IMG/VR virus record: IMGVR_UViG_3300033073_001027
Location: 1-64,000 of that record
Source of the DNA: a virus
Taxonomy: Duplodnaviria; Caudoviricetes
Direction: 5' to 3' (one strand)
Length of the DNA: 64,000 nt
Below are positions 1 to 64,000 of this stretch, in pieces. Both the position numbers and the translations under genes were made by a program. How positions within the stretch are numbered: the first letter of the stretch is position 1; each line of letters opens with the position of its first letter. The notes under the pieces were generated by a model. The model did not search any database. It worked only from the letters and a program-made list of their open reading frames with translations, and was not told the DNA's origin.

Positions 1-1392
1 AGCATATGTTGGACCAGCAAACGGTCCAGTTGGATATGGTCTTTGGGTTGCAGGTCCAGAGTAATATCCTGTGTATGCTAAGGGACTAGAATAATACCCT
101 GTAAAATATCCAGTATAGGTTGTAGGAGAAGAATATGTTCTAGAACCAGAATAAAAACCAGTATATGAAGATGCACTATAGAATGCAGAATACCATGGAC
201 TTCCAGTATAGAAACCAGTATATCCAACCAAAGGACCAAGTGGAGCAGTATATGTTCTAGAGTAAGCACCAGAATATGATACGCCCGAATATGGTCCAGT
301 AGGCGATGAGTATGGTGTTCCTGTATATGGACCACCGCCACCAGACCCACCAGAAGCATAGTTACCAGTAAATGCTTGCGAATACGTACCAGTATAGTTT
401 GTAGGACTATAAACTATGCCACCATAGTTACCGCTGAATGCTTGGGAGTATGTTGGTCCTGGTCCAGAGTAGTTTCCAGTGTAATTTCCTGTACCACCAT
501 AGTTACCAGTAAATGCTCTTGAATATGCAGGACTTGTGTAGTATGCAGTATAAGGTGGACCACCGTATGTTCCACTGAAATTACCAGTAAAGTTGCCAGA
601 ATAAGATCCAGCATAGTTTTGCGGTGTTACTTGCTCGCGTGTATCAGTGGTAGCATTGCCCATCTGAACCCATGTACCAGATCCAGGAGCACTGTCTTGC
701 AATTTATATGTGCCAACACCAGTATCAATAATTCTGTTGCGGAAATTAGCAACCAACTGCTCAATTTCGGTGGAAGACATAATCTTAACAGAATTGTTAT
801 CGTACTTCTTCAGAGGCGCAAGAGAACTGTCAGCAGAAGAACTTGCGGCAGTTTTCTGCCACAAATATGTGGTTGTGTTCCCACCATTCGCTACGTCTGT
901 TATTGTGTATCTTGAAACCCAAGTACCACCAGAAGGCGCAGATGCTTGTAACTTGTATTGCCCAGCAGTGTATGAGGATTCCGACACCATTGCTGAAATA
1001 ACTTTGTCCATGACAGCATCGAGTTGCCCATCTGACATTTCGATGATACCGTCGGACCAAGCGATAGGACGATTAGTAACGCTTTCGGAAGCAGCAGCAG
1101 TTACTTGTTTCGCGTAATAGGTAGTGGTAGTTACGGACCCAGTTGCAGGGTGCGTCCCAGTCGCTTCAGTTCTGTCGGTGTCAGCAAATGTGCCGATCGA
1201 TGTACCCGAACCAGAATTGTCTGTTGTGATATTTAATTCAGCAGTTCCAGAACCAGTAGTATCAGTAGCAAATTTTGTGGTAATTACGTTTGCAATATAG
1301 TTCTGCACCTCGCCATCGGTCAAAGGTTGAAGTCCGCTAAATACGGCGGACGTAATAGGAGTTGTCGATGCTTTGACCTTTAGAGGATTCAT
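1..1392 (-). CDS. Putative virion structural protein with a C-terminal Tyr/Gly/Ser/Thr low-complexity repeat region (3' end runs off the window)
   Basis: Not in the ORF track. I read an uninterrupted minus-strand frame from ATG at 1392 (MNPLKVKASTTPITS...) to position 1. The distal ~205 codons read NYAGSYSGNFTGNFSGTYGG...YTGFYSG...YTGYFTGYYSS. It lies directly downstream of virion genes. Confidence 0.85.
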   Translation of the reverse strand, partial: MNPLKVKASTTPITSAVFSGLQPLTDGEVQNYIANVITTKFATDTTGSGTAELNITTDNSGSGTSIGTFADTDRTEATGTHPATGSVTTTTYYAKQVTAAASESVTNRPIAWSDGIIEMSDGQLDAVMDKVISAMVSESSYTAGQYKLQASAPSGGTWVSRYTITDVANGGNTTTYLWQKTAASSSADSSLAPLKKYDNNSVKIMSSTEIEQLVANFRNRIIDTGVGTYKLQDSAPGSGTWVQMGNATTDTREQVTPQNYAGSYSGNFTGNFSGTYGGPPYTAYYTSPAYSRAFTGNYGGTGNYTGNYSGPGPTYSQAFSGNYGGIVYSPTNYTGTYSQAFTGNYASGGSGGGGPYTGTPYSSPTGPYSGVSYSGAYSRTYTAPLGPLVGYTGFYTGSPWYSAFYSASSYTGFYSGSRTYSSPTTYTGYFTGYYSSPLAYTGYYSGPATQRPYPTGPFAGPTYA

Positions 1393-1394
1393 TT

Positions 1395-1877
1395 TTAGTT
1401 CAACCTGTTACCACTTGTGTCGTATACAATTAGGTTTGTCACACGATACCAGTCTTGGGTATCTTGCGAAACCAACTGAACAGAACTGTATGGTGCAAGA
1501 TTTACTGCAGCATTAACAGTTCCGCCGTCGATAACATCGCCAGTCGACGGATAGATTTTAATTGTATTGCTTGTGGTATTGATAACTGTTACGCTAAGAC
1601 CAGCATCAGCAGCAGGAAGTTTTACGCCCTGATTTGTTGTTGCTGTGGTAACAATGCTGATAGTTTTTGTCAGGGCAGTAGCACCTGACTGATCGGTACC
1701 AGCAGCAGAAACTGTTGGGTCAACCGATGGAACCATCGAACCTGTTAGCGTAATATTTTCGAAGGTCGGACTGTCGCCCGATTCGTATTTGTCTGTGTTG
1801 AGATTGATAAAGTTTTGATCAACCTCATTATTGGTAAGAGGTGTGCCTTTCGCAGACCTCAGTGTTAATGTGCTCAT
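1395..1877 (-). CDS. Virion structural protein
   Basis: N-terminal motif TLRSAKGTPLTNNEVDQNF is typical of T4-like virion/fibre proteins; structural gene context. Confidence 0.7.
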   Translation of the reverse strand: MSTLTLRSAKGTPLTNNEVDQNFINLNTDKYESGDSPTFENITLTGSMVPSVDPTVSAAGTDQSGATALTKTISIVTTATTNQGVKLPAADAGLSVTVINTTSNTIKIYPSTGDVIDGGTVNAAVNLAPYSSVQLVSQDTQDWYRVTNLIVYDTSGNRLN

Positions 1878-2098
1878 GCTTCCCTACCTTGGTTGTTAAG
1901 AATTTTCGTCAATAAAGTCTTTATCTCAATCATTTCGCTCTTCAACATATTTATATCATCGAGAGAAGATTGTATGTGTTTTGCTCTTTCTCTTTGCGCT
2001 TTATATGCTGATAACGAATTGCGGTCACTAGAGATAATCGCTTTAGAGTCTTTATCTCTTACATATTTATTGGTGTCTTGAAGTTGTAATTTTTCCAT
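1874..2098 (-). CDS. Hypothetical protein, 74 aa, coiled-coil C-terminus
   Basis: ORF track; abuts or overlaps both neighbours (ATGA overlap). Confidence 0.7.
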   Translation of the reverse strand: MEKLQLQDTNKYVRDKDSKAIISSDRNSLSAYKAQRERAKHIQSSLDDINMLKSEMIEIKTLLTKILNNQGREA

Positions 2099-2099
2099 A

Positions 2100-31256: not shown

Positions 31257-31399
31257 TTACTATTCCTTAGATTGTTAAACTTGAGAGGTTTTGATACTAC
31301 AGTGACTCCCCACACTGTGATGAAAAATGGAACCAAGAGGTTCCATACAACTATTTATCGGTATTAACCTTTCTGTTCGCTCGGTTCACCGTCGAAAAA

Positions 31400-31716: not shown

Positions 31717-31721
31717 TAATC

Positions 31722-39049: not shown

Positions 39050-39058
39050 TAATTCCTC

Positions 39059-42642: not shown

Positions 42643-42648
42643 AAGTTT

Positions 42649-46857: not shown

Positions 46858-48170
46858 AATGTTTTACACCACTCTAAAAATTCTTTAAATTCAGGAAATG
46901 TCTCTATCAAATTAGTTCCACTGCGAAGATCGTACTCGGGAAAGAACTTGGCAAATTCTTTACGAGCACGCAGACGGTATTCTTCTGTGACTGCATGTGA
47001 GTCTTGATAAAAATATTCACGAACTCGTTCCATTTTACCGATTTCTATTTTACTGAATCCATTATGATTCATAAACTCAACATCTCGATCTATATATACT
47101 CCGAACTCTCTCGGTAGAATATTCATTGTCCAGTGTGGAGGTTCTTTAAGATGTGGGATGTCAATCAGAATACGTTCACCCCATTTTGCTCTAAGTTCTA
47201 CAATCAACTGTAGGAAGTCTTTAAAGTATGGAACAGTCAGAACATTATACGTTGTCATAAAACTCAGATACGCTGTTGGCACCGTTTCTAGAACAGTATT
47301 TACGTTCTCGAGAAACAGTTCGTAGTTTAGACCACGACGAATATACTCTGCTTGCTTACCTGTGCATTCGAGACTCGTAAACAATCGCAAATTCTTGATG
47401 TGCTTTGCTTCAATCAAACCCTGCACACGTTCGCAAAAATCTTTAACTTTACGAGTTGTAACACCAAGGTTGGTATTGATCTGTAAAAATAATTCTGGGT
47501 TACCATCTTCCTTTAACATATCCAGCAACTTAAATGTGTTTGTTGTCATCAGAGGTTCGCCACCAGTGATGCGGAAGATCTTCAAATCGTTCTTCAGATC
47601 AGGCCACCATTTCCAAAATGCTTCGACGTATGGATTGTATTCTTTTTCAGAATAAATTTTGCCATGCACACCATATGGACTATTTGAAATATCATAATCC
47701 CCAAATTGAGATATTTCCTCCTGCCACATCGAAGAAAACGTAGAACAACAATATCCGCACTTGAAGTTACAAGCATTGCTGAAACTAATTTCCATGTTAT
47801 AAGGATTTACGTCTTGATCCCATGGAGTATTGCGAAGTAGTTCCGTCTCTTCGTCTAACACAAATAGATTATTAATGCTGTCCGTATTTTTATATACTCG
47901 GTCGCTAGTTTTATCTAAATCTTCTATGCTCCAGCAATATGAACATTCACTAGGTCTGCCACCTTCAAGCATATTTTTACGCTGTTGTTTTTCATGAGAT
48001 GTATTGTGGAGGGCAGAAGGATTACTTTTAATTTCCTCCTGTGGGATATATAGAGGAGGTGGATGATGACAACTGTGTTTCTCCCCAGAGTGAAGATAAA
48101 GCGCAAGCCATCTCCACTTCTGGGGGCAAAACCCAGCACCAACAGAATCCAGTTTTTCTTTTACATTCAA
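46854..48170 (-). CDS. Radical SAM protein with N-terminal twitch domain, CHH subtype (copy 1)
   Basis: CNFKCGYC, TGGEPLM; N-terminal CPQKW...SCHHP...CSYCW. Confidence 0.92.
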   Translation of the reverse strand: MNVKEKLDSVGAGFCPQKWRWLALYLHSGEKHSCHHPPPLYIPQEEIKSNPSALHNTSHEKQQRKNMLEGGRPSECSYCWSIEDLDKTSDRVYKNTDSINNLFVLDEETELLRNTPWDQDVNPYNMEISFSNACNFKCGYCCSTFSSMWQEEISQFGDYDISNSPYGVHGKIYSEKEYNPYVEAFWKWWPDLKNDLKIFRITGGEPLMTTNTFKLLDMLKEDGNPELFLQINTNLGVTTRKVKDFCERVQGLIEAKHIKNLRLFTSLECTGKQAEYIRRGLNYELFLENVNTVLETVPTAYLSFMTTYNVLTVPYFKDFLQLIVELRAKWGERILIDIPHLKEPPHWTMNILPREFGVYIDRDVEFMNHNGFSKIEIGKMERVREYFYQDSHAVTEEYRLRARKEFAKFFPEYDLRSGTNLIETFPEFKEFLEWCKTL

Positions 48171-49459: not shown

Positions 49460-49638
49460 TGACATCATCAATTAGTCAGCAAGAAATGGATATGCATTTC
49501 GACAAGATCGAAAGTGAGATGACTCAGCAACAAGTTACTGAGTCACCCACTGTTTACTTTCGTTTCGGAGAGGAAAGTCCTCTACTTACTTGGACGTTGC
49601 TCTATACACGCCATCCCAACCCTCAGTTGGTTTCTTAG
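49459..49638 (+). CDS. Hypothetical protein
   Basis: GGAGG RBS and TAATG coupling; overlaps the 3' end of the convergent cyclase gene. Confidence 0.5.
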   Translation: MTSSISQQEMDMHFDKIESEMTQQQVTESPTVYFRFGEESPLLTWTLLYTRHPNPQLVS

Positions 49639-51631
49639 ATAGTTCTTCGATTCGTTCGACCATCATATCGTAATAAGAAGTTAACTCTCCTTGCCACTGG
49701 TCTTTAAGATCGGTGGCAAACTTTTTAGCACGGATCCAATCACCAGTACGATAAGCATGGAGGAACTTGAGATGCTCGTGCCCGAGTTTCACATTAAGTT
49801 CTGTGTCAAGAACAGTGTAGATTGATACTGGTTCAGTCTTACCCTTAACAGCGACCAAGTCTAGTTCTACTGCTTGGTAGGTTCCATCGGCGAGGACTGC
49901 TTGTGCGGTTTTTGGACCAATAACGATCTTAACCCCATAAGGTTTTGATTGTCCTTCAAGTCGGGAAGCCAGATTAACGCCATCACCAAGGCAGGTATAA
50001 TCAAAACGCTGATCGCTGCCCATATTACCAACCACAACGGTGTCAGTGTTAATCCCAAGACCCATACCAAAGGGTGGAACACCTTCTTTTTCAACTTCAG
50101 CATTGAATGCCTCCAAGTCTTTCAGCATTGCAAGTCCAGTACGAACTGCATTCATAGCATGATCTTTATCATCTAACGGTGCATTCCAGAAGGCCATCTG
50201 GGCATCACCAATATATTTGTCAAGAGTGCCTTCGTTCTCGATAATACGAGCAGTCATGGCAGTCATGTAGCGATTCATAATTTTAGTTAGACCCTGAACG
50301 TCTTTACCATAGTGCTCAGAGATAGTTGTAAATCCGCGAACGTCAGTAAACATAATTGACAGTTCTCTTGATTCACCACCAAGCGCAAGCAGTTCTGGAT
50401 TCTTCTGGAGTTTCTCGACCATTGCGGGTGACAGATATGTACCGAATTGCTTCTTGATCTGTTGCTTCTGGAGGAATTCGCTGATAAACTTGACCGTATA
50501 GATGTGCATGTAGATAATAGCAATTGCGATGATATTAAATGTCACATCGAACAGAATATGCTGTTCTTTGAAGAGATATACTGGCAAATAAAAATATCCA
50601 GCGAGAATTGCGCAAATATAAATTATAGAGAACCGAAAACGAGAGAGAACGATCAATGCAAGAGCAAGACCCAGAAAAGCAGCAAGATCCGCAACTGTTG
50701 ACCAGTTCGGAATCGCAACAGAATCTCCATTTATCAGAGTTTCAAGTATACTCGCCTGAAGGTCGTGGGGATATTGGGCACCTGATGGAGTCGCTACAGG
50801 ATTCGCTACCCCAGCAGCAGTTACGCCTAATACGACAATCTTACCAGAAAGATCAGGAAGTTTCTCGCCTATCTCAAACGTTTGAAATTTATAATTTGGA
50901 TTAATGAACACTCGACCATATTCATCGGTCTTAATGGTATCGAATTGAGGAACACGTAATGCTTCAACACCAGTCTGATTTATCTTTGCTTGATACGAAG
51001 AGTCTCCTGCAGCTACACGCAGCATCTCTATCCCAAATGCAGGATAGTATTCGCCTTTTGATTGAGATAGAAGAGGAACTCTACGTACAACCCCATCAGA
51101 CTCGGGTAGTGTCGACGTTATCCCTACACCGACGGCAGCTTCTTGCAGAACTGGAATATTACTTAGAACGCATGGGTATTGAGGAAGAAATTCAGTCGGT
51201 TGTCCGTCGCCGACGACAGCAACTCCAGTCCGAGCAATATTCTGCACCCCCTTACATGAATCAGTTGTTGTCTGACTCAGGACTACTGGGTAATTAGATA
51301 GTGCACTTGCCAATACAGCGTCAGTGCCCATGCGATCAGGCTCAGGCATAAGTACAGTGCTACCGACAAGAGCAGCCCCTCTACTATAAATGTCCTCAAT
51401 AATTTTAGCATGGACTTCGCGTGGGAAAGGCCACTGACCATATTCTTCAATTGCTTTCTCCCCGATATTTACGGTAACAATTTGTTCGGATTGTTTGGGT
51501 GAACCCAACATCAAATAGTCATAAAATTTCATTCTGGTTGCTTCAACCAGATACGGATCAGAGAGTTTTACCGCCAAAAGAATACCAAAGGTAAATAACG
51601 CCAACCATGGCGAAAGTAAAACTTTTTTCAT
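49586..51631 (-). CDS. CHASE2-domain class III adenylate/guanylate cyclase
   Basis: N-terminal TM, CHASE2 motifs (GQWPFPREVHA, DGVVRRVPL, GKIVVLG), three TMs, then FTDVRGFTTISE...DKYIGDAQMAFWNAP...GNMGS..RFDYTCLGDGVNLASRLEG. Confidence 0.95.
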   Translation of the reverse strand: MKKVLLSPWLALFTFGILLAVKLSDPYLVEATRMKFYDYLMLGSPKQSEQIVTVNIGEKAIEEYGQWPFPREVHAKIIEDIYSRGAALVGSTVLMPEPDRMGTDAVLASALSNYPVVLSQTTTDSCKGVQNIARTGVAVVGDGQPTEFLPQYPCVLSNIPVLQEAAVGVGITSTLPESDGVVRRVPLLSQSKGEYYPAFGIEMLRVAAGDSSYQAKINQTGVEALRVPQFDTIKTDEYGRVFINPNYKFQTFEIGEKLPDLSGKIVVLGVTAAGVANPVATPSGAQYPHDLQASILETLINGDSVAIPNWSTVADLAAFLGLALALIVLSRFRFSIIYICAILAGYFYLPVYLFKEQHILFDVTFNIIAIAIIYMHIYTVKFISEFLQKQQIKKQFGTYLSPAMVEKLQKNPELLALGGESRELSIMFTDVRGFTTISEHYGKDVQGLTKIMNRYMTAMTARIIENEGTLDKYIGDAQMAFWNAPLDDKDHAMNAVRTGLAMLKDLEAFNAEVEKEGVPPFGMGLGINTDTVVVGNMGSDQRFDYTCLGDGVNLASRLEGQSKPYGVKIVIGPKTAQAVLADGTYQAVELDLVAVKGKTEPVSIYTVLDTELNVKLGHEHLKFLHAYRTGDWIRAKKFATDLKDQWQGELTSYYDMMVERIEELSKKPTEGWDGVYRATSK

Positions 51632-52185
51632 TGCGTCAATTCTTTCCATTCTTCTGGGGTGATTTCTCGTTTAGTTGCAAGTAAATTTTCATAATGTATA
51701 TATTCTGTTTCTAAATCATTTTCAGAATACACATCATTTTTTACATAAACTTTTGATTCGCTTTTGGTATTTGTGGTAATTGTTCTGTTGTCAGTTGGTA
51801 TATACTCAGATAATCTATCAAAATTAATATAACAAAAATCAAGATAATTTTGACGCCATTGACCTGTTTCAATATCATAGTGCACAAAATTCATAGTATT
51901 ACCATAACATATATATTTTAAGAATGGTCTGGAATGCTCGATAAATTGCTGTCTAGCATGTTCATCATATATTATACTATTACATCCAAATCTTTTATAT
52001 GCAGAAATTAATCGTTGGTACGGATTGCGCAACACAACAATTCTAAGATTTTTTGTAGTTTGCCAAATATTAAATGATTCCGCAACACAAGTATATACGG
52101 GAATATTAAAATACCCATACATACTTGTATGACCGCATCTTGTTGCAGAATAAACACACATTTTACCATTATCATAAACAAACAT
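51628..52185 (-). CDS. Sulfotransferase-like protein (Sulfotransfer_2-type motifs)
   Basis: TRCGHTSM (5'-PSB-like) and VLRNPYQRLISAY (3'-PB-like); visibly AT-richer than its neighbours. Confidence 0.55.
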   Translation of the reverse strand: MFVYDNGKMCVYSATRCGHTSMYGYFNIPVYTCVAESFNIWQTTKNLRIVVLRNPYQRLISAYKRFGCNSIIYDEHARQQFIEHSRPFLKYICYGNTMNFVHYDIETGQWRQNYLDFCYINFDRLSEYIPTDNRTITTNTKSESKVYVKNDVYSENDLETEYIHYENLLATKREITPEEWKELTQ

Positions 52186-52187
52186 AA

Positions 52188-53642
52188 TTAATTCTTCGTA
52201 TAAGAGTATCCATTACATGGTCCAGTCGTACATGTTATTTCCATTTTTGCAGAGTCTGCGGCAGTCAAGTTATTTTGCGAAACTGTCACACCAATACCTG
52301 CATTATTTAATATAAGTTGAAATTGTTTAGCAGAAGAACCAATTTGAGATACTGTAGCAGAAACTCCACCAAATGGCGCATCAATCTGTAAGAAATGGTT
52401 TCCCAATCCTTCTTGCAACGCACTGATATTATTAGAATTTCCTAACGCATTGATAAACAACGATTTTCCGTTTGCGTCTTTTTGTTGTGCAGAAATCTGA
52501 TTGCCAAGACCATTGGTTACAATCTCAGCATACTTGCTACCATGCTGTTGCGTCAGCGATATAATATTGTTGTTACCAGTCACCGAAACTTCTGCCAAAT
52601 TTTTACCGATTGGTGTTGTCGCAGTCCCTTGATTAATTGTAATACTGTTACCACTACCATTGATCAACATTGCTTGTGCACCATTAACACCGCGAATCTG
52701 ATTCTGTTTAGAAAACTGTTCAATATAAACTGAATTATTAGATCCAGTTGCATTAATGTAGATAGAGTTTTGCGTAATTGCATTAGTCTGATTGATCTTT
52801 AGTGATTGACTCGCACTAATTGCAGCAGCAGGATATGTTGGTTCTACAGGTCCAGGAGTCGGAGGTGGCGGGGCAGAAGATCCCGCATTTGGTTGAACTG
52901 GTGTGAATGTCGCACCATTCAGCAACGTTGTACCTTGCATCTGGTCAATGAAAAGAATTGGCGACAAAGCAGTATCACCAAGATTGAATGAAGCAAATCC
53001 TAATGTGTAGTTACCATCAGTAGGAACAGTAAATACCGCAACTTGCCAACCAGTGGCACCATACGAGTTAGTAGAGTAGTTACCAGTGCCAGTATTAGTA
53101 AAACCTAACAGAGCAAAGTTTTGTGTCTGTCCATTGATAGTTGGTGTTCCTGGTCCGCCAGTCAAAGTAATCAGAGAACCATCATTGTATGGCATGTAGT
53201 CTGTTGAAACATACTGCCAAGCAAACGTATAAGTAACCCCTGCTTGTAGCGTTACTGTTCTACTGATAGATGACGCATTAGTCGGCCACATGTTACCATT
53301 AGAATAGATCGTATTTTTAATTGATGTAATCGCTGAACCAGCAAGACCAAGAGTGGTCATAGCATTATCAAAGGTTGGCGAACCACCCCCTGCTTGAACA
53401 GCGACCATGTATGATCCGTATGGTGTAACTGTCCAGCACTTACCGCCACCAGGACAATAGTTTTGCATTCCAGATGTTACTTGAACACCAGCGCCGTTTG
53501 GACTCCAAGAAGTGCGAAGTGTAGTTGATCCGTTACTTACTGTCCAACCAGTATAATTCCCGTTCTCAAACCCGTAGTTTGCAACCTGCGCAAAAGATGG
53601 GAAAGAGAAGAACAGAAGAAATAGAGCGATTAATTTTTTCAT
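52188..53642 (-). CDS. Secreted protein: N-terminal beta-sandwich-like domain, Pro linker, C-terminal curlin-like repeats
   Basis: Signal peptide MKKLIALFLLFFSFPSFA; NYGFENGNYTGWTV; PPPPTPGPVEP; repeats such as TGSNNSVYIEQ, GSGNSITINQG, TGNNNIISLTQ, GLGNQISAQQ and GNSNNISALQEG. Confidence 0.75.
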   Translation of the reverse strand: MKKLIALFLLFFSFPSFAQVANYGFENGNYTGWTVSNGSTTLRTSWSPNGAGVQVTSGMQNYCPGGGKCWTVTPYGSYMVAVQAGGGSPTFDNAMTTLGLAGSAITSIKNTIYSNGNMWPTNASSISRTVTLQAGVTYTFAWQYVSTDYMPYNDGSLITLTGGPGTPTINGQTQNFALLGFTNTGTGNYSTNSYGATGWQVAVFTVPTDGNYTLGFASFNLGDTALSPILFIDQMQGTTLLNGATFTPVQPNAGSSAPPPPTPGPVEPTYPAAAISASQSLKINQTNAITQNSIYINATGSNNSVYIEQFSKQNQIRGVNGAQAMLINGSGNSITINQGTATTPIGKNLAEVSVTGNNNIISLTQQHGSKYAEIVTNGLGNQISAQQKDANGKSLFINALGNSNNISALQEGLGNHFLQIDAPFGGVSATVSQIGSSAKQFQLILNNAGIGVTVSQNNLTAADSAKMEITCTTGPCNGYSYTKN

Positions 53643-54778
53643 CTCTGCCCTGTCTCCTGAATAACAGTGATGTTACCTTGCGGTCTACCAGTACCAGATG
53701 TTGTCCATTTATCATCCATAAAGTTGTAAACATCAACCAATCCATTTTGCACGGAAACTAACTGCAGTTCTGTAGATTTTTCCATCCACACAGTGATTGC
53801 TTGTTGTTTATCTTCCGAGAGACGAGTATAAACCCAACCAACCTGCACATTCTTTTTGAATGTTGGAGAAACGTTAGTATAAATCGTTTCTGCTGGTCTA
53901 TTTCCCTCGTTGAATTCTTGATAAACTTCAATCAACTCTTGCGGAGTTGCTTGTCGAATCATAACAGCAGCAACCTGTTCGACATTGTCTGTAGTTCCTG
54001 CGTCAGGATCTTTATTGTCATCTCCTGCTGCTCTTGCTGGGTTTGTGAATTTCTTGAGTGTTTCTCTAGCAACCTGCAGCAAACTTTGACCGTCGTCTGT
54101 TTCCAGAGGAACAATCTGAACACTGTTGTCTAGTGTCTTCATCAAAGGATTAATTACCACTGGTGGAGAAGGTGGGGCATAAGAATTCTCAACAACAGTT
54201 GCTTGGAATGCTTTTGTAAGAGAAACAACTCCAGACGCAGTGATAACATCGATCGCACCATTAGGACAATCTGCTGTTTGTTTTGTAATATCTAATTCAT
54301 TATAGCATTCGGGAACAAGCACGACCGTCGAACGACCTGCTTCATCAACCGACATAACGAAGTCTGTGCCACGAACTGCGATGGTTGCAGTAGGTGTGCG
54401 AATATTTACGCCTTTCGCGTTACCGTGCGCGATGGCACCTGAGGTGTATCTGACAGTGCCGAGTGCGACTCGTAACCCGAGTTTGCCTTTCGACTTCCCT
54501 CCGCCATCATAAACAAAGTCATCGATAAGAAGTTTAGAGTTTTCTGTAATATTGACCGTAGTTGCATCATTGAATGTAATCCTAAATCTTCCCTGAGAGT
54601 TGGTGGACACCGTGTCCATTTTTTCAACACCAGAACCCTTCGCGGCAGGTGCTGCTTTCACCCCACGTTTAATTTGCCCACCACCCTTAGCATCGGTGAT
54701 CGACCCGATTGATGCCATCGCAGGGGTCGATACCAATAGTAAAAGATTAATGGCCAGTTTTAATATTGAACGTGCCAT
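53639..54778 (-). CDS. FecR-domain protein (exported)
   Basis: Signal peptide; DTVST...ITFNDATTVNITENSKLLIDDFVYD...GTVRYTSG...IRTPTATIAVRGTDF. Confidence 0.88.
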   Translation of the reverse strand: MARSILKLAINLLLLVSTPAMASIGSITDAKGGGQIKRGVKAAPAAKGSGVEKMDTVSTNSQGRFRITFNDATTVNITENSKLLIDDFVYDGGGKSKGKLGLRVALGTVRYTSGAIAHGNAKGVNIRTPTATIAVRGTDFVMSVDEAGRSTVVLVPECYNELDITKQTADCPNGAIDVITASGVVSLTKAFQATVVENSYAPPSPPVVINPLMKTLDNSVQIVPLETDDGQSLLQVARETLKKFTNPARAAGDDNKDPDAGTTDNVEQVAAVMIRQATPQELIEVYQEFNEGNRPAETIYTNVSPTFKKNVQVGWVYTRLSEDKQQAITVWMEKSTELQLVSVQNGLVDVYNFMDDKWTTSGTGRPQGNITVIQETGQR

Positions 54779-55508
54779 TTGAACCTGTGCTGTTAATGTT
54801 TATAACAGTTTCGGAAACACCATATTGTTGTGTTGTTACAGTGTTTAGAGAACCTGTTAGATTCACATACAGCGAGTGACCAAATGTTCCACCAGTGCCT
54901 GTTTGTGTAATATCAAAGTCGTTGTAGTTACCAGTCACAAGTAGAGTCTGCGATGCATTAGGAGATAATGCATCAATGTTAAATGTGTTGTTATTACCAG
55001 AGATATCCATCGAGTTGCGGATATTGGCACCCGAACCATGGAACACAATCGAGTTTGAATTACCAGTAAACTTAGCATTCATGTCAAGTTGATTACACAA
55101 CGAATCTGTCTGCAGAGTTCCGCAGCGAATATCTGCAGAGTTTAGATCGCCAAGTTGACGAATTGTTACTGTTGCGATTCCTTGGGCCCCAGTGTTGGAA
55201 ACAATTCCCATGTAGAGAGTGTTTCCGTTACCTGTCTGAATACCAATGACGCTTTGGTTGTCCCCACGTAGATAGATAGGATCAACAGCGGAACCAATAA
55301 TATTGGCAGTACCAGTTTGAACAATGTTAACATCTACATTGCCTCCTTGCTGATCGATATATACCTTATTTGTAGTTGCCACTGCATTAGCGTCAGTTTC
55401 GTTAGGTGAAGTTGTGACGATTGCTGGTGGAGTTGGTGCTGTTGGCAGAACTGTCTGAGCGAACGCAGAAGTTGAAACGAACAGCAAACCTAGTGCGAAT
55501 TTCTTCAT
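54747..55508 (-). CDS. Secreted curlin-repeat (CsgA/CsgB-like) protein
   Basis: Signal peptide MKKFALGLLFVSTSAFA; repeated x-I-x-Q-x-G-x-x-N units (NKVYIDQQG, NIVQTGTAN, IQTGNGN, IRQLGDLN, ISGNNN, ITQTG). Confidence 0.75.
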   Translation of the reverse strand: MKKFALGLLFVSTSAFAQTVLPTAPTPPAIVTTSPNETDANAVATTNKVYIDQQGGNVDVNIVQTGTANIIGSAVDPIYLRGDNQSVIGIQTGNGNTLYMGIVSNTGAQGIATVTIRQLGDLNSADIRCGTLQTDSLCNQLDMNAKFTGNSNSIVFHGSGANIRNSMDISGNNNTFNIDALSPNASQTLLVTGNYNDFDITQTGTGGTFGHSLYVNLTGSLNTVTTQQYGVSETVININSTGSNGTFNIKTGH

Positions 55509-56323
55509 TTAGATTGCTCCTGTTTTTGCTTAAATCTCCATAGATTTTTTCTTTCACCATCCTTGATCACCTCAACAACGGCCGTTTCTATGGCAGAACG
55601 GATAGCATAACTACCTGCTTCATTACTTGTTTGTTGTCCATCGAACTCAAATGCTTTCGTGTCCATATCGAAGAACTTGAAAGCAGTGATACCTTCAGAA
55701 GTCGAGAGAACTGTTTTCTCAACTGTAACTGAAGTCAGCACCTCGCCAGTCTGGACAGATACTAGACGAATACTAATCGTAACTTGGTCTTGCGCATATT
55801 GCTGGTATGGACCGATGCCAAGGAAACGAGCACCTGTTCCTCCAGTTTTAATGTTCGAATTATAGTCAATGATGCCACCCTCAAGAATGATACCTGCAAC
55901 TTTTAGTGGCGGTAGAGGTTCAGCACTTTCACCAGCAATTTGTTCACGCATCTGGCGAACAAGTTGACGTTCTTTAATGAGTGAATCGATTCCAACACGC
56001 TCAACAGGAACAAACCACTTACCATCGCCTGTATCTTGTAGAGTTTTAATCAGATATGCGTCAGCACCCTGAGTTACTGCTGTTGAGAAACTTGCTAATG
56101 TCGATGATGGTTTACGTTGCCCTGTTCTATCAGTAAATGCATATAGAGCGATAGGAATAGGTTGACCGTCTAACTCTGGTAGATTCTTGAATAATTTTGG
56201 ATTCGCGAATCTTTTGACTTCTGCATCTTCTCTGAACAAATAGGATTGATTGGTGGCAGGATGAAGCGCACCAACGCACCCTGAAGTTGCGAGCAGAAGC
56301 GGAAGGAGAATTAACTTTTTCAT
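55505..56323 (-). CDS. csgG: Curli secretion pore lipoprotein CsgG
   Basis: Lipobox LATSGC; YAFTDRTGQRKP...FSTAVTQGA...WFVPVERVGIDSLIKERQLVR...EGGIIDY...TGGTGARFLGIG...RLVSVQTGEVL. Confidence 0.93.
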   Translation of the reverse strand: MKKLILLPLLLATSGCVGALHPATNQSYLFREDAEVKRFANPKLFKNLPELDGQPIPIALYAFTDRTGQRKPSSTLASFSTAVTQGADAYLIKTLQDTGDGKWFVPVERVGIDSLIKERQLVRQMREQIAGESAEPLPPLKVAGIILEGGIIDYNSNIKTGGTGARFLGIGPYQQYAQDQVTISIRLVSVQTGEVLTSVTVEKTVLSTSEGITAFKFFDMDTKAFEFDGQQTSNEAGSYAIRSAIETAVVEVIKDGERKNLWRFKQKQEQSK

Positions 56324-56332
56324 ATATCCTCC

Positions 56333-56779
56333 TTAGAATGCGAATGTAGCAATAGGAACAGTAACAACCGTAGTGTTACCATTCTTATCGACAACTGTTA
56401 GAGTCACATCAGTATTGCTCTTGACATAAGAAATCTTATTTCCGTCAAGATTAAAAGTTCCTGCTCTCGCCTCAGAACCCTCAGCAAACAGATTGTTTGA
56501 AAGTTGTGTAGCAAGTTGGGCATAAACCTGTGAGGTGAACAGTGCCATAAACTTTGCTAGTGGTGTATTTGATGCCTCTGCCTTTGCCAGCGCAATCTTT
56601 GCTGCTTCCGCATCTTTAATTGCTTGAGTACGCGAACGTTCTTGGGCATCAATTGATTGAACGTGCGATGACCACCCATAACCATTGAAGGAAGGTGATT
56701 TAAAGGACTGGACTATAGGGTCTGCGAATGCTGGACTACTTAGACTTAGTAGCAGGAGCATCGTCGCTCGTTTTAGCAT
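56333..56779 (-). CDS. csgF: Curli assembly protein CsgF-like
   Basis: Signal peptide, FKSPSFNG (compare CsgF NPxFGG), SQVYAQLATQLSNNLF and TVVTVP; adjacent to csgG. Confidence 0.8.
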   Translation of the reverse strand: MLKRATMLLLLSLSSPAFADPIVQSFKSPSFNGYGWSSHVQSIDAQERSRTQAIKDAEAAKIALAKAEASNTPLAKFMALFTSQVYAQLATQLSNNLFAEGSEARAGTFNLDGNKISYVKSNTDVTLTVVDKNGNTTVVTVPIATFAF

Positions 56780-58544: not shown

Positions 58545-59663
58545 TCAGCGAATAATATCAATCTTTTCGATCGTTTCGGGCGACCAAATTTCTAAATTTT
58601 GACGCAAACGTCCGTCCGAACGCAAAGTTTCGTATCTTGAGGACGCTTTTTTCTTCCACCAGCGAATAATATTCTCAGAATAGTGCTTGTCAAAGTTTTC
58701 AGGACTCTTAATTAGCGTTTTATCGGTTCCGAGGATGTAATTTTTAGAATTTTCGTATCCGTAAGTCGAAATATAGAATCTTTTTTGCGTTGTAACGTCT
58801 TTGTTCGCCTGAATTGCGTTCGAAAACTCCTTCAAGAGTTCGGATTCGTAATATTTTAGCGAATTTTTGATAACTGCCATCATTTTGTTTTGCATTTTCA
58901 ACTTGTAGGAGGCAATTCCCTCTCTACCAAACAAAGGTTGACCATTATTCTTACTTGCAAACCAATTCATCGTCTCTTCCCAGAAATCATCCGAGAATGC
59001 AAGCACAAAATTGCTTACTGTATCACCAGTGTAGCGAATAAACGGTTTTAGTCCGTCGTATTGCGACGCTTGTTTGATATTTCCGTAAAGAGATGTTGTT
59101 TCAAAAAGACAAGTTTCCATGTCATATTTCTTATTGAACATTTCACGGAACTCATGAGAAGCGCAAAGAAGTGCACAAAGTTTACCACCAAGGTAGTTGA
59201 ACCCAAACGGTTGCGCAGGGACGATAATGAACCCCATAACTGCATGCTTGTTGAAAGATCGTAAATCTGGAACGCGACCAAACCAATCATTACGAGGTTT
59301 AGAATTAATGAGAGGACTGGCGACTCGACAAAATCCAACATATTTTCCTGTGTTCTTTTCTCTTACAATGAATTTAATCTCCTTCCCGAACGAATTCTCA
59401 TTACAGAAAGACGAGGTGATCTCGACCATCGTTGAAAATTCGCTCGGGGAGGGTTCGAAGATCTCAAACTCCATATCTTCAGGATGCATATCGAAATCCG
59501 AGAACAACATGTGTTCTGGTTCACAACCTGGAAGAGTTGCAGGAAGAGACTTCAAACGTTCTAACTTCTTCATGCGCATGTGGTCATCGATTCGACCATA
59601 GTTTGACATATAGTCAATGAATCGACGACCAATATATTCTGCGTCTTGTTTTTCTAATAGCAT
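58545..59663 (-). CDS. DUF4338/DruA-like protein
   Basis: KFIVREKNTGKYVG...SP.....PRNDWFG...IVPAQPFGFNYLGGKLCALL...ETTSLYG....SQYDGL...GDT motifs. Confidence 0.65.
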   Translation of the reverse strand: MLLEKQDAEYIGRRFIDYMSNYGRIDDHMRMKKLERLKSLPATLPGCEPEHMLFSDFDMHPEDMEFEIFEPSPSEFSTMVEITSSFCNENSFGKEIKFIVREKNTGKYVGFCRVASPLINSKPRNDWFGRVPDLRSFNKHAVMGFIIVPAQPFGFNYLGGKLCALLCASHEFREMFNKKYDMETCLFETTSLYGNIKQASQYDGLKPFIRYTGDTVSNFVLAFSDDFWEETMNWFASKNNGQPLFGREGIASYKLKMQNKMMAVIKNSLKYYESELLKEFSNAIQANKDVTTQKRFYISTYGYENSKNYILGTDKTLIKSPENFDKHYSENIIRWWKKKASSRYETLRSDGRLRQNLEIWSPETIEKIDIIR

Positions 59664-59699: not shown

Positions 59700-60509
59700 T
59701 TAAAAAAGATCTTCAAGTGAAGATTCAACCTTCTTATACTTCTTGTTTCGATCATGCAGTTTCAGTTCTGCATGCCCAGTCGACTCACGAATATACATCG
59801 TACACAGTTCTGGGAAAGTATCAGCAATAATCTTGACGCTGTCATAGACATACTGCTTGGTTCGGAAGTCTTGTAGTCCACCTTCTTCCTTATAGTATCG
59901 CGACTTAACAGTATAATCGTCTAGACGAACTAGAACACCATTCTTAATATACTGGCGAATAGAATATTCGTAGTCTTCACCGTGATTGGTAATACGAGCA
60001 AGGAAGTCATCATGCTCAACAATAACACCAAACATAGAAGCAATGATATAACAGATGTCGTTATAAACACGGTGCTTCATAAAATATGCATTAGCAGCAG
60101 CATAGATACCAAAAGTCTTAGCACCTACCTTGTCACATTCCTCGAAACCACGAAGAATAACTTCCTTCTCCAGATCCTCGACTCGACCCAACTTCTGTTC
60201 GCTAATCTTTACCTGAACTTCTTCAATGTCATCATCGAACATCATGAGACGAGTTCCCTCAGGATACCACTTCTCGATAAAATTGCGCTGAGCACCAATG
60301 GTCGGAACTCCACGAATAATCTCAATATCCTTTGCGTAAGGATTATCCTTCAACGCATTGGCATAGCGATCATATTCACCTTCTTCCTGATCATTAACAA
60401 AGATCTTAATCTTGGCAGGATCAATGTTATACGACTCAAGAACCTTCAACGTCTTATTCTGAACAGTCTTTTCACGATGATAAGACGGGATGGCAATACA
60501 ATAATCCAT
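59700..60509 (-). CDS. TET-associated (GREB1-like, GT-A) glycosyltransferase
   Basis: IAIPSYHR...RNFI...MFDDDI...GEDYEYSI...GGL motifs; coupled to the TET/JBP gene. Confidence 0.8.
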   Translation of the reverse strand: MDYCIAIPSYHREKTVQNKTLKVLESYNIDPAKIKIFVNDQEEGEYDRYANALKDNPYAKDIEIIRGVPTIGAQRNFIEKWYPEGTRLMMFDDDIEEVQVKISEQKLGRVEDLEKEVILRGFEECDKVGAKTFGIYAAANAYFMKHRVYNDICYIIASMFGVIVEHDDFLARITNHGEDYEYSIRQYIKNGVLVRLDDYTVKSRYYKEEGGLQDFRTKQYVYDSVKIIADTFPELCTMYIRESTGHAELKLHDRNKKYKKVESSLEDLF

Positions 60510-61885
60510 TAAAACAAATCCTCCAATGACGATGTTACTTCATATGCTTTAGGGTGATACTTCTCAACTGTTTCTCGACCCATCTTTTCTTCTAGGTAGT
60601 CATACCATTCTTGTTCATCCCACATTCCAGGCGATACGCCATTCCAAAGTGGGCGATAATACTTATGCTCGTGGTTGCTTCTGCGATCTACAACATACTG
60701 CTCCCGAGTTGTTTCGTATTCATACGATCCAAGTTCCAACATGTTCTCGCGGAAATAGCAAACGAGCGAGATACGTTCTGCTTCTGGATTATTTAGAACG
60801 ATCTCAGTGTTACCGTGCATAATTTCATGATTGTTAACAAGCAGCAGATCTCCTGGGCGAACGTTTACTGCGATACGATATTCAGGAAATACTAGATAAC
60901 CACCAGTATAATCCCCGCTACCGACAACAAGCAGATTGCTGAGACCATCGTCAAGATCGCCAGCATCTCTGTGGGCAGCAGTACGGAACGACTTGTTGAC
61001 TGTGATAGTTGTAAATACGGTTCCTGGGACAACAAACTTCTCATCGATTCTGTCGACTGCTGCTTTCTGATTCCCCCAACGCCATGGGAGTAGTTCCTTG
61101 AAACCTCTGTCAAGAGACTGTAGAAAAGGAAAGGAAAGGCGAAACTTATCAAAATTATCGCGAGTGTAACTAGTAGCACGCCCAAAAGGAATTCTCGGAT
61201 AACGATCGTACCACCCAGCAACACCTGAGAAAACCGACTTCGCATAGTTTGTGGTTGAGATCCACTTGGTGGCAACGATTTTTGCTGCATCTACAATTTC
61301 TTCCTTAGACTTTCCATCAAGACTATCGACCCACTTGTCGAACCATCCGAAATATTCTGGATATACCTTACATACCTGACTACGCAACCAGACTGCGCCA
61401 CGAGTTTCATCTGCATTCGAACGAGGCGCACCTGCATACTTAGCACGAATGCTTTCGATTGATACGTCTTCGATCAATCTTCCGCTAGTATCCATCAGGA
61501 AATCGAGCATCTCGAGTTCGTAATCAGTTACCCAGTCACGGCCGCCACGACCCTCTACGCCAAGAATCTCACCGCGAGGACCAGCAGCAAGTCCACGATT
61601 CTGCGATTCGGTTGCTGCTTCTCGCAGTCCGAGATATGCCTGATCCTGTTCTTCCTGAGTAAACCAGTTCTTACGAAACTTGAATGCGATTCGTCGCTCA
61701 TCAGTGCCAATATCGCAATCACTACAATCTTTATCGCATGAAACTTTTGTGTCAAGACCACAGTCTGCTTCCATATAGCAGTCGGTATCTTCATTGATCA
61801 CAACATCAAAGTGACTCTCATCTAGATATTGACCTAGTAGGTGTTCGCAGTCGAGTTTAGACTCTGCGACAATAACTTTTACCAT
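60509..61885 (-). CDS. TET/JBP-family 2-oxoglutarate/Fe(II) dioxygenase
   Basis: SGVAGWYDR, FTTITVNKSFRTAAHRDAGD (HxD), GDLLLVNNHEIMHGNT (distal His) and RISLVCYFRE (2OG-binding Arg). Confidence 0.88.
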   Translation of the reverse strand: MVKVIVAESKLDCEHLLGQYLDESHFDVVINEDTDCYMEADCGLDTKVSCDKDCSDCDIGTDERRIAFKFRKNWFTQEEQDQAYLGLREAATESQNRGLAAGPRGEILGVEGRGGRDWVTDYELEMLDFLMDTSGRLIEDVSIESIRAKYAGAPRSNADETRGAVWLRSQVCKVYPEYFGWFDKWVDSLDGKSKEEIVDAAKIVATKWISTTNYAKSVFSGVAGWYDRYPRIPFGRATSYTRDNFDKFRLSFPFLQSLDRGFKELLPWRWGNQKAAVDRIDEKFVVPGTVFTTITVNKSFRTAAHRDAGDLDDGLSNLLVVGSGDYTGGYLVFPEYRIAVNVRPGDLLLVNNHEIMHGNTEIVLNNPEAERISLVCYFRENMLELGSYEYETTREQYVVDRRSNHEHKYYRPLWNGVSPGMWDEQEWYDYLEEKMGRETVEKYHPKAYEVTSSLEDLF

Positions 61886-63037: not shown

Positions 63038-63041
63038 GCCA

Positions 63042-63704
63042 TTAAATATCAAGCAACGCTGGTGTGGCAGCACTCTGCCGCTTGTGCTCCAGCGTAATAT
63101 TCGGAGAAATCGAGTTAAGTACCGCATTCGCGGGATACAAACCATTATAGAATTCGATAACACCATCCTCTAGTGCTCGAAGCATAGTCTGCGGAGCATC
63201 GATCGGAATGAATATCGCAGAAGCATAATCCATGGTTCTCCCATGCTTCTTAATCCACTTATTAGCAGCAGCAATATCATCATCGCCAAGATCAGTCATA
63301 ACACGTCGAACGAACTTACCAATACGCTCTCGTGGGTCACGAATAGTTGATCCAACATACACTGATATTTCACCACTGATTGGATGTTCATAGTAAATCA
63401 CATACAACCCTCGTGTCCCCTTAATACTGGGGATATTATAGTCAAGGAAATCAATTCCCTTATACTCACCAGTCGAACTATAACGTGGTGTAATTCTGGT
63501 CTTTTCCGTCATAGTCAATACCATACTGACATACTCTGAAAGAAAATCCACATACTGCGGTAAAATCAATGTACCATCAAGTCCATATAATGTGCCATTA
63601 AGTGCACGTGCGCAACTCTCAACAACTGGACTCATCGTTGATTGCTTAACAAACATATCTGATGCCAATCTAACTGCCACTGCATGTGCTAATTCATGTT
63701 TCAT
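63042..63704 (-). CDS. GIY-YIG-like nuclease domain protein
   Basis: GLYVIY...YVGST....RERI...LE pattern; start at MKHELAH after AGGAGG. Confidence 0.55.
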   Translation of the reverse strand: MKHELAHAVAVRLASDMFVKQSTMSPVVESCARALNGTLYGLDGTLILPQYVDFLSEYVSMVLTMTEKTRITPRYSSTGEYKGIDFLDYNIPSIKGTRGLYVIYYEHPISGEISVYVGSTIRDPRERIGKFVRRVMTDLGDDDIAAANKWIKKHGRTMDYASAIFIPIDAPQTMLRALEDGVIEFYNGLYPANAVLNSISPNITLEHKRQSAATPALLDI

Positions 63705-63723
63705 ATTATGCCTCCTTATTGTT

Positions 63724-63903
63724 TCATGCTTCAACTGTAGTAGCGTATCCGTTTTTCACTTCACGCTTTCTTGATGCCTGTGCTCTCTTCACTTCTTTAT
63801 CGGAGAGTCCCAACCCCCTCGCCCATTCATAATTGTCCAGGAGGACAACAATGCCATCAGGGGTGATATACTCATAGTAGAAGTAGTGCGCTTTCCTTGC
63901 CAT
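63724..63903 (-). CDS. Hypothetical protein, 59 aa
   Basis: Read manually: MARKAHYFYYEYITPDG...YATTVEA*; TGATG coupling. Confidence 0.6.
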   Translation of the reverse strand: MARKAHYFYYEYITPDGIVVLLDNYEWARGLGLSDKEVKRAQASRKREVKNGYATTVEA

Positions 63904-64000
63904 CAGTTAAACTTCCCTTCCATAAAGTCTTCCACCCACTGAAAGAACGTGTCGTAATCGTATAGCACAGTCTCCAATAGTTCCGCTTCAATCTGTGCAG
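63903..64000 (-). CDS. 3' end of a hypothetical protein (partial)
   Basis: Open frame ...AQIEAELLETVLYDYDTFFQWVEDFMEGKFN* whose stop overlaps the next ATG. Confidence 0.5.
   Translation of the reverse strand, partial: AQIEAELLETVLYDYDTFFQWVEDFMEGKFN

Follow-up and report, generated by a model that had tools for sequence, protein, structure and literature searches.

Near-complete elimination of restriction sites is documented in non-temperate dsDNA phages, mainly at orthodox type II sites (Rusinov et al. 2018, PMC6286503). The DNA examined here, a 64,000 nt stretch (the window) of a 102,113 bp viral contig that represents ~60% of the genome of an uncultured, T4-like water phage, resembles those cases in that short, self-complementary, type-II-like words have been nearly eliminated by synonymous change, with several words avoided together in lineage-specific sets. 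It differs from the surveyed cases in its main word, the degenerate RGCY, which is the equivalent of a 3-bp site and of which roughly 1000 copies have been removed. Exactly this word is cut (RG^CY) by R.CviJI, part of the CviJI restriction-modification system of chlorovirus IL-3A (PMC3681635); the literature consulted names no other characterised RGCY endonuclease. The virus that encodes this system infects a eukaryotic alga, and the system includes a C5 methyltransferase, whereas neither such a methyltransferase nor a recognisable restriction enzyme was found in the phage or its relatives. Literature searches returned nothing specific on RGCY or CviJI avoidance in phages or cyanophages. Modification of RGCY has been reported in marine myovirus-like MAGs (Hiraoka et al. 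2022, PMC8919816), that is, at the same word and in the same broad aquatic myovirus group. Those MAGs keep enough RGCY for a modified motif to be called, while the phage described here has removed the sites and lacks a matching methyltransferase; by analogy, the comparison suggests that RGCY may be a contested site in aquatic phage‒host systems.

The window also carries a Tet_JBP dioxygenase gene with an adjacent TET-associated glycosyltransferase (TAGT) gene, as do the C5-methyltransferase/TET/glycosyltransferase hypermodification systems of phages (Burke et al. 2021, PMC8256090), in which the TET-linked C5-methyltransferases target GC[C/T] regardless of the 5′ base. The present phage departs from these systems on three points: its near-complete relatives carry no C5-methyltransferase, the word concerned is RGCY and not GC[C/T], and the locus and the purge do not go together. 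With the ParB-independent phage thymine dioxygenases (O'Toole et al. 2026, PMC13229309) it shares a 5mYOX gene adjoining a glycosyltransferase gene, without a neighbouring C5-methyltransferase or ParB, a context assigned in that study to thymine oxidation; the likeness is one of gene context. A C5-methyltransferase was present in only 6% of phage 5mYOX pathways, and the others were inferred to be thymine dioxygenases (PMC13229309).

The loss of sites extends over the whole window and beyond it, as summarised by the following feature.

Positions 1–64,000, no strand: strand-symmetric depletion of RGCY (45 copies), with CCGG (5) and GTAC (59) also depleted, extending over the whole 102-kb contig.

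The initial annotation had judged AGCT, AGCC, GGCT and GGCC to be scarce, at a few dozen copies where about 600 would be expected, and this was accurate: the window holds 45 RGCY (AGCT 12, AGCC 8, GGCT 8 and GGCC 17) against ~617 expected from base composition, with observed/expected ratios (O/E) of 0.05 to 0.18 for the individual members. The expectation is ~538 under a first-order and ~280 under a second-order Markov model, and the ratio does not approach 1 after correction; the four RGCY words and CCGG rank lowest among all 256 tetramers (Markov-2 O/E 0.10 to 0.45). The whole contig contains 99 RGCY against ~1064 expected, so that about nine-tenths of the copies are gone, and none of the 4-kb bins along it has a normal level. 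Inside ORFs, 70 sites were seen against 614 ± 17.5 (z = −31) under a null in which codons were permuted within genes over 200 replicates, preserving the proteins and the codon usage of each gene. The three reading frames are purged to about the same degree (13, 29 and 28 sites; a single shuffled replicate gave ~147, 199 and 275). RGCY reads identically on the two strands and its depletion is strand-symmetric: AGCC and GGCT are equally rare in the window, although the genes are nearly all on the same strand. Because all frames are purged, and because these two words are equally rare despite the one-strand gene layout, the constraint acts on DNA and not on mRNA.

Type-II-like palindromes that lack a GpC centre are purged as well. 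Nearly all copies of CCGG have been lost (5 against 95 expected in the window), and GTAC is reduced to 59 against 227 there; O/E for the two words stands at 0.03 and 0.27. The contig has at most one copy of each of the hexamers ACGCGT, CCGCGG, GCGCGC, CCTAGG and GCTAGC, and none of the first three. These losses of CCGG, GTAC and 6-mers go beyond those listed in the initial annotation. YGCY words are mostly at or above expectation in the window (TGCT 1.49, TGCC 1.31, CGCC 1.39, CGCT 0.82). GATC, TCGA and TGCA appear to be in excess, a feature explained by dinucleotide biases since their O/E falls to 0.67 to 0.96 under the Markov-2 model. The idea that modified thymine shields palindromes containing TC or TG was dropped, as this excess vanishes after correction.

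The route by which sites were removed can be read from codon choice. A dependence of alanine codons on context had been noticed by eye, and the codon shares bear it out: after a purine, GCA accounts for 0.80, GCG for 0.16 and GCC plus GCT for 0.046, and after a pyrimidine GCT accounts for 0.36 and GCC for 0.12. GGC makes up 0.9% of glycine codons before a pyrimidine versus 19% before a purine, AGC makes up 0.9% versus 12.8% of serine codons in the same two contexts, and leucine codon choice is likewise context-dependent. Where GGC is lost before a pyrimidine it is replaced by GGA or GGG, not GGT, the share of which is flat (0.506 before Y, 0.496 before R). When orthologs in G019, an unpurged relative, are compared, 81 of the 95 RGCY that fall at conserved dipeptides have changed here; sites in the alanine frame were altered solely at the flanking R/Y bases, with transversions predominating (T>A 10, C>A 8, C>G 7, A>T 8), and substitutions were not concentrated on the central C or G. 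The dinucleotide O/E values for the window (GC 1.00, GT 0.99, AC 0.89) and the GGT share reveal neither loss of GpC nor gain of deamination products, as CpG-like, methylation-driven decay would entail. Since GpC stands at 1.00 and the alanine-frame sites were lost by flanking transversions, the pattern is one of selection against the word, and the earlier proposal that RGCY had been eroded by deamination does not hold.

The sites that survive are concentrated in a few places, including the following.

Positions 31,367–31,745, minus strand: permuted, two-piece alpha-type tmRNA, an unpurged structural RNA retaining two AGCT (31,455 and 31,464).
Positions 18,907–18,910, minus strand: example of a forced GGCC, where Trp-Pro must be coded TGG-CCN.
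Positions 49,586–51,649, minus strand: CHASE2/adenylate-guanylate cyclase gene with 7 RGCY (O/E roughly 0.35).
Positions 28,152–28,321, plus strand: 3′ end of an 841-aa tail-lysin-like gene, with four surviving RGCY in 170 bp.

Structural RNAs are unpurged, and 23 of the 99 sites of the contig fall within the 2.2 kb of tRNA and tmRNA genes (10.3 per kb, versus 0.76 per kb elsewhere). The two neighbouring AGCT that the initial annotation had seen in the tmRNA are present. Of the GGCC in the window, 10 of 17 are forced by Trp-Pro pairs (including those at 18907, 22161, 37120, 38556, 38790, 39768, 47602, 51429 and 53284), as are 12 of 32 in the whole contig. Among protein genes, the densest cluster of surviving RGCY is that of the CHASE2-cyclase gene, possibly a recent acquisition in which the purge is still incomplete. 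The nearest cellular homologs of this gene, 49–53% identical, are in Bacteroidota MAGs. An 83% match occurs in a ‘Bacteroidetes’ MAG, but that sequence is itself purged of RGCY and CCGG and is most likely a misbinned contig of a related phage. Host assignment through this gene was therefore rejected, the 83% match being likely phage and the true cellular homologs only 49–53% identical. The tmRNA is of the alpha-proteobacterial type.

Comparison with other phages shows that the purge is lineage-specific. Relatives with gp32 proteins 83–90% identical split into purged (RGCY O/E 0.05–0.11) and unpurged (0.62–1.03) groups, and the sets of avoided words differ between related phages, as enzyme repertoires specific to each host would lead one to expect. 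Relative G002 avoids the same set as this contig; G004 avoids AGCT (0.02), GGCC (0.06) and CCGG (0.01) but has AGCC/GGCT at 1.09; and G003 avoids CGCG (0.19) and GTAC (0.25), with RGCY at 0.86. A ‘modify or avoid’ split between the two groups was rejected, as the unpurged sisters (G019 and others) are without a cytosine methyltransferase. A 20 kb megablast search against cultured phages gave no match. RGCY depletion is also seen in cultured T4-like phages of marine Synechococcus and Pelagibacter that lack TET (S-H9-2, 0.15; S-RSM4, 0.19; HTVC008M, 0.25), the TET search giving only a sub-threshold, 14-bit match in S-RSM4. Conversely, TET occurs without the purge in G003, in Cr30 (0.70) and in the loci L013–L016 (about 1.0), and an orthologous TET is also found in genomes missing only AGCT, GGCC and CCGG.

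The genes on which the initial annotation had based its main interpretation lie near the right end of the window, next to a third gene that also had to be considered.

Positions 60,509–61,885, minus strand: TET/JBP-family dioxygenase (5mYOX) of 458 aa, with a Tet_JBP domain at aa 253–380.
Positions 59,700–60,509, minus strand: TAGT (PF20691), the presence of which is uncorrelated with the purge.
Positions 58,545–59,663, minus strand: DruA/DUF4338-like (GNAT-like) protein adjoining TAGT, from a very large family in aquatic T4-like phages.

The TET domain matches PF12851 (91 bits, at 60,746–61,129); the N-terminal ~250 aa match no family, yet are conserved among relatives. A search of solved structures with the TET sequence returned only weak Tet-family matches, uninformative on substrate. 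TAGT adjoins TET in 16 of 80 TET loci, spread across purged and unpurged lineages, and is missing from the equally purged G002 (92% complete). The initial annotation had proposed a search for a C5-methyltransferase in the rest of the genome; PF00145 gave no matches in the contig, in 18 TET-bearing relatives (three of them 92–100% complete) or in 5 gp32 relatives, while positive controls were detected. Neither PF01555 (N4 methyltransferase) nor PF00303 (the dCMP-methylase homologue) was found in the contig, nor in the related records searched (up to 18, of which three are at least 92% complete); among the cultured phages tested, PF01555 genes occur only in S-H9-2 and P-SSM5 and do not track the purge. 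As these three families were not found, no route to 5mC is visible, and on that ground TET is more likely to be a thymine dioxygenase than a cytosine one. Nor did these searches reveal any cytosine methyltransferase able to protect RGCY sites, which agrees with avoidance of restriction. TET and TAGT constitute a separate system, which would most likely oxidise thymine to 5hmU and then glycosylate it. This putative glycosylation could not shield GGCC or CCGG, since both words lack T.

The DruA/DUF4338-like gene is confined to the purged clade among TET loci and long contigs, and 74 distant loci carrying such a gene have a median RGCY O/E of 0.40. As a cause of the purge it was rejected: cultured cyanophages without the gene (S-RSM4, S-H9-2, S-H9-1 and P-SSM5) are equally purged, and the association is therefore a lineage effect. 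The depletion is thus independent of this gene as well as of TET and TAGT. A screen, not exhaustive, for genes common to the purged G000 and G002 but missing in G003 and G004 returned ribonucleotide reductase, radical SAM enzymes, glycosyltransferases, a NUMOD3 homing-endonuclease-like ORF, a small methyltransferase-like protein and genes of unknown function. No restriction-enzyme-like or DNA-methyltransferase family was detected among them (Pfam, PHROGs and NCBIfam; many ORFs are unannotated and 40% of the genome is missing). The small methyltransferase-like protein, a class-I ORF of 213 aa, has no DNA-methyltransferase motifs, and nothing convincing emerged from the screen.

The purge is probably a case of classical restriction-site avoidance, independent of the TET and sugar-transferase genes. 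The initial annotation had offered a host restriction target as its second choice, and it is this alternative that the evidence favours over its TET/glycosyltransferase reading. Under restriction-site avoidance, the genome of a lytic T4-like phage would be under strong selection, at the level of dsDNA, against self-complementary RGCY and also against CCGG, GTAC and some 6-bp palindromes. Any available synonymous change would serve to remove sites, and survivors would remain only where the sequence is constrained (tRNA, tmRNA and Trp-Pro pairs) or perhaps recently acquired. We infer that a host restriction enzyme is responsible: most likely the phage encounters at least one site-specific endonuclease in its host or hosts, candidates being an RGCY cutter of CviJI-like specificity together with HpaII/MspI-like and RsaI-like enzymes. 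A classical single-site cutter could still cleave at the 99 remaining sites, and for this reason the agent may be density-dependent or the residual sites otherwise protected. We know of no bacterial or other prokaryotic enzyme of RGCY specificity, and the marine Synechococcus and Pelagibacter hosts of the depleted cultured phages are, to our knowledge, not noted for rich restriction systems.

A broader version of this reading is plausible, though it is put forward tentatively: an undescribed, widespread CviJI-like RGCY nuclease of aquatic bacteria or phages may have shaped many T4-like genomes, with the ~100 sites that could not be removed perhaps covered by a non-canonical modification. Such a nuclease would span the range from the freshwater-type lineage described here (O/E 0.09) to the cultured Synechococcus and Pelagibacter myoviruses (0.15–0.25). 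Non-canonical cover of residual sites would also agree with the RGCY signals that lack an explanation in MAGs of marine myoviruses.

Avoidance of methylatable sites, in which host methyltransferases for RGCY, GGCC or CCGG, either solitary or belonging to R-M systems, would mark phage DNA for cutting by type IV nucleases of the next host, is unlikely. Solitary GGCC and rCCGGy methylation is widespread in cyanobacteria, which counts in its favour, and the tolerated residual sites would fit enzymes needing at least two modified sites, so that a lower density would matter. Among the modified motifs of marine myovirus-like MAGs, furthermore, RGCY is the most common, and no methyltransferase that matches it has been identified (PMC8919816). 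The sequence pattern expected under this model is nonetheless that of classical restriction, and the data cannot tell the two apart; the avoidance recorded in surveys is mainly at orthodox type II sites (PMC6286503).

It is also rather improbable that the phage encodes an RGCY nuclease of its own, shredding host DNA as chloroviruses do with R.CviJI and remaining safe by lacking sites rather than through methylation. T4-like phages do degrade host DNA, and the purge is confined to certain lineages, which is how an accessory gene would be distributed. Against this, the non-exhaustive screen of genes common to G000 and G002 and missing in G003 and G004 found no restriction-enzyme-like or DNA-methyltransferase family, and the purge of CCGG and GTAC would require several such nucleases.

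Very little speaks for the leading proposal of the initial annotation, that RGCY is modified by the phage's own C5-methyltransferase/TET/glycosyltransferase pathway (5mC, then 5hmC, then glycosyl-hmC) and that either 5mC deamination or the cost of modification has eroded the word. The TET/JBP and TAGT genes are indeed adjacent, and published phage TETs act on GpC-centred 5mC (PMC8256090). TET, however, is found without the purge and the purge without TET (TET alone in G003, Cr30 and L013–L016; the purge alone in S-H9-2, HTVC008M and S-RSM4), TAGT is missing in the purged G002, and no C5, N4 or ThyA-like enzyme was found in the contig or the relatives searched. The known partner methyltransferases target GC[C/T], but YGCY is not depleted (TGCT, TGCC and CGCC are all above expectation). 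The GpC ratio, the flat GGT share and the flanking transversions also stand against it, and so does the rarity of C5-methyltransferases among phage 5mYOX pathways (PMC13229309).

A non-selective cause, whether a bias in codon pairs or in translation or a context-dependent bias in the mutations made by the replication machinery, is scarcely credible: nothing specific favours it, dinucleotide biases explaining only the GATC/TCGA/TGCA excess, and the depletion survives both Markov-2 correction and synonymous shuffling, on both strands and in three frames, and is missing from sisters with 83–90% identical gp32, which presumably have the same replication and translation apparatus.

The phage and its relatives provide an unusually clean natural experiment, in which ~1000 sites have been lost by codon rewriting while sisters with gp32 83–90% identical are unpurged. 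They separate two things that are naturally conflated, a TET/glycosyltransferase modification locus and the purge of a GpC-centred word, and they carry a warning for annotation: a phage TET homolog that comes with no C5-methyltransferase is not to be called cytosine-modifying. The results point to an RGCY restriction specificity not yet described in prokaryotes and, because cultured cyanophages and a pelagiphage show the same bias, tractable hosts could be used to look for the agent.

The window forms the opening 64 kb of an IMG/VR viral contig of 102,113 bp (completeness ~59%, CheckV) and derives from a T4-like phage. Its genes include those for gp32, gp59, a T4 baseplate protein, PhoH and a permuted tmRNA of the alpha-proteobacterial type, and 24 tRNA genes lie farther along the contig than the window; the contig is incomplete and many ORFs belong to no family. 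The gp32 protein shares 54–56% identity with the gp32 of Pelagibacter phage HTVC008M and of marine cyanomyoviruses, and no close relative at the DNA level was found among cultured phages.

The scarcity of RGCY (AGCT, AGCC, GGCT and GGCC) described in the initial annotation was confirmed. The window holds 45 sites (AGCT 12, AGCC 8, GGCT 8, GGCC 17), against ~617 expected from base composition, ~538 from a first-order and ~280 from a second-order Markov model, and after correction the four words, together with CCGG, are still the most depleted among all 256 tetramers. There are 99 sites in the whole contig, and every 4-kb bin is depleted. When synonymous codons were shuffled inside each ORF, preserving protein sequence and per-gene codon usage, 614 ± 17.5 sites were expected in ORFs and 70 were seen (z = −31). 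Other avoided words are CCGG and GTAC (contig observed/expected ratios, O/E, 0.03 and 0.27), and the 6-bp palindromes ACGCGT, CCGCGG, GCGCGC, CCTAGG and GCTAGC occur at most once each. Alanine codon choice depends on context, as had been noticed by eye: after a purine GCA makes up 80%, GCG 16% and GCY 4.6%, and after a pyrimidine GCT makes up 36% and GCC 12%. The GGC share of glycine codons falls from 19% to 0.9% if the next base is a pyrimidine, the AGC share of serine codons falls from 12.8% to 0.9%, and leucine following a codon ending in RG is nearly always TTR.

The remaining sites mark places where selection is not free to act. The tRNA and tmRNA genes (2.2 kb) carry 23 of the 99 sites, including the two AGCT sites previously reported in the tmRNA; this is 10.3 per kb, approximately the unbiased density, versus 0.76 per kb elsewhere. 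GGCC is the least depleted member because Trp-Pro pairs force TGG-CCN, which accounts for 12 of its 32 copies in the contig. The ~100 leftover sites may mean that the agent is density-dependent, or that sites are protected in some way.

The depletion reflects selection against the word and not decay of methylated cytosine, the erosion by deamination that had been proposed. Dinucleotide ratios are ordinary (GpC 1.00, GT 0.99, AC 0.89), and the purge is about as strong in each of the three reading frames. Although the genes lie almost all on one strand, AGCC and GGCT are scarce to the same degree; the constraint therefore acts on duplex DNA rather than mRNA. Before a pyrimidine, the lost GGC is offset by GGA and GGG while GGT is flat (0.506 vs 0.496). 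Orthologs were compared with G019, an unpurged relative genome (117 kb, RGCY O/E 0.72), using only dipeptides with conserved amino acids, and 81 of its 95 alignable sites are changed in the window phage. In the frame xxR|GCY, where alanine locks the central G and C, all changes fall at flanking positions and are mostly transversions that break R/Y identity (T>A 10, C>A 8, C>G 7, A>T 8), a pattern that cytosine deamination is unable to give.

The purge is probably driven by host restriction, the alternative offered in the initial annotation and the one favoured here; enzymes reading RGCY would select for loss of the sites. The features are those of the restriction-site avoidance that Rusinov et al. 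surveyed (PMC6286503): a non-temperate phage, a dsDNA genome, and short, self-complementary words, several of which are avoided at once in sets that differ among related lineages. The sharpest comparison is among genus-level relatives with gp32 83–90% identical, which split into a purged set (0.05–0.11, CCGG low) and an unpurged set (0.62–1.03). The equal loss of non-palindromic AGCC/GGCT argues for one RGCY-reading agent rather than AluI-like plus HaeIII-like enzymes. Such a combination is, in contrast, the pattern of the clade typified by the TET-bearing relative G004 (100% complete; AGCT 0.02, GGCC 0.06, CCGG 0.01, AGCC/GGCT 1.09). Chlorovirus CviJI is the only characterised RGCY enzyme that we found named in the literature (PMC3681635), and in marine myovirus-like MAGs RGCY is the most frequent modified motif, with no matching methyltransferase (PMC8919816); RGCY thus seems to be contested in the interplay of aquatic myoviruses and their hosts. 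That methylatable sites are instead avoided because of type IV enzymes is unlikely. A phage-borne RGCY nuclease is likewise an unlikely agent; among the scanned genes specific to purged genomes, no recognisable restriction enzyme or DNA methyltransferase was found. Three adjacent window genes were considered as correlates:

58545–59663, minus strand: DruA/DUF4338-like protein, beside TAGT and TET
59700–60509: TAGT glycosyltransferase, adjoining TET
60509–61885: Tet_JBP dioxygenase (TET)

Among TET loci the DruA-like gene occurs in the purged clade only, and over more distant loci that carry it the median RGCY O/E is 0.40. It was rejected as a correlate, since the purge is just as strong in cultured cyanophages that lack it. 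The protein has ~5,900 homologs in public data, one called 'methylcarbamoylase mom' in a GenBank record, and DUF4338 has been termed GNAT-like (PMC10853773). In cyanomyoviruses the gene is flanked by gp44 and gp62, which encode the clamp loader; in the window it has moved next to TAGT/TET.

The proposal that RGCY is the site modified by the TET/glycosyltransferase locus is very improbable, being refuted by a double dissociation. Across 80 viral loci with orthologous, full-length TET (55–91% identity), only the clade of ≥77% identity is purged (0.02–0.11); loci at ~70% are near 1.0, and a large clade at 55–64% has AGCT, GGCC and CCGG at ~0.0 and AGCC/GGCT at ~1.0. Among near-complete relatives bearing TET, G002 (92% complete) has the word profile of the contig and G003 (98% complete) gives RGCY 0.86, CGCG 0.19 and GTAC 0.25; cultured Caulobacter phage Cr30, with TET, gives 0.70. 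Conversely, three cultured phages are purged: S-H9-2 (0.15) and HTVC008M (0.25), in which Tet_JBP gave no match, and S-RSM4 (0.19), whose one match is sub-threshold at 14 bits. Just 16 of the 80 loci have TAGT after TET; these are spread over purged and unpurged lineages, and TAGT is absent from purged G002. Searches of the contig and related records, with positive control genomes, gave no match to PF00145 (C5-methyltransferase), PF01555 (N4/N6 methyltransferase) or PF00303 (ThyA, dCMP methylase/hydroxymethylase), so that no route to 5mC is visible in these sequences. Published TET-linked methyltransferases target GC[C/T] with any 5' base (PMC8256090), whereas in the window YGCY words are as common as expected or commoner. 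A 2026 study (PMC13229309) reports a C5-methyltransferase in just 6% of phage 5mYOX pathways and assigns those without one, often adjoining glycosyltransferases, to thymine dioxygenases; from this gene context, the window TET more likely makes 5hmU for glycosylation. TET homologs of Cr30, DLP6, S-CBWM1 and HTVC112P are annotated in GenBank as 'SNF2 DNA repair protein', a label probably inherited from trypanosome JBP2; they match Tet_JBP and not SNF2. Non-selective bias is the least credible explanation.

One accessory gene may have arrived recently; the nearest homologs from cells are in MAGs of Bacteroidota:

49586–51649: CHASE2-cyclase gene, keeping 7 RGCY sites

An 83% identical copy lies on a 46.6-kb sequence (RGCF01000015.1) binned in a 'Bacteroidetes bacterium' MAG. 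This sequence is itself purged (RGCY 0.14, CCGG 0.00) and is most likely a mis-binned contig of a related phage rather than host DNA. The terminal ~7 kb of G019 (110001–117295), a curli/CHASE2 module, is RGCY-poor (0.25 vs 0.72 overall) and its proteins are 76–92% identical to those of window genes 49586–56779, which suggests that the module was swapped between purged and unpurged lineages. Window 34432–48170 (minus strand) is a single operon in which eight radical SAM genes stand in tandem, five of them having an N-terminal SPASM-type domain. The operon also contains a carbamoyltransferase, a GT28-type glycosyltransferase and a 284-aa gene that lacks annotation; a diverged version occurs in G002 and G019, and it is absent from G003 and G004. 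Outside the window, also on the minus strand, contig 73257–74443 carries a 213-aa class-I SAM methyltransferase-like ORF (weak Methyltransf_31/FtsJ matches, no DNA-methyltransferase motifs) overlapping a 188-aa 2OG-Fe(II) oxygenase, a pair missing from G003 and G004. A 713-aa TonB-dependent receptor (Plug and beta-barrel domains; 85294–87435, minus) is an outer-membrane transporter of a kind rare in phage genomes. Directly beyond the tRNA array, a NUMOD3-motif ORF (91791–92282, minus) is probably a homing endonuclease, and the overlapping ORF beside it has an in-frame stop in this contig.

HTVC008M shows a very strong multi-site purge over its whole genome (RGCY 0.25, TCGA 0.00, CGCG 0.01, CCGA/TCGG 0.03, GATC 0.18); to our knowledge, its host Pelagibacter is not noted for restriction systems. 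Site avoidance by phages is already known, and the case described here is striking in being aimed at RGCY. Cultured cyanophages and a pelagiphage share this bias and so provide tractable systems in which to seek the agent.
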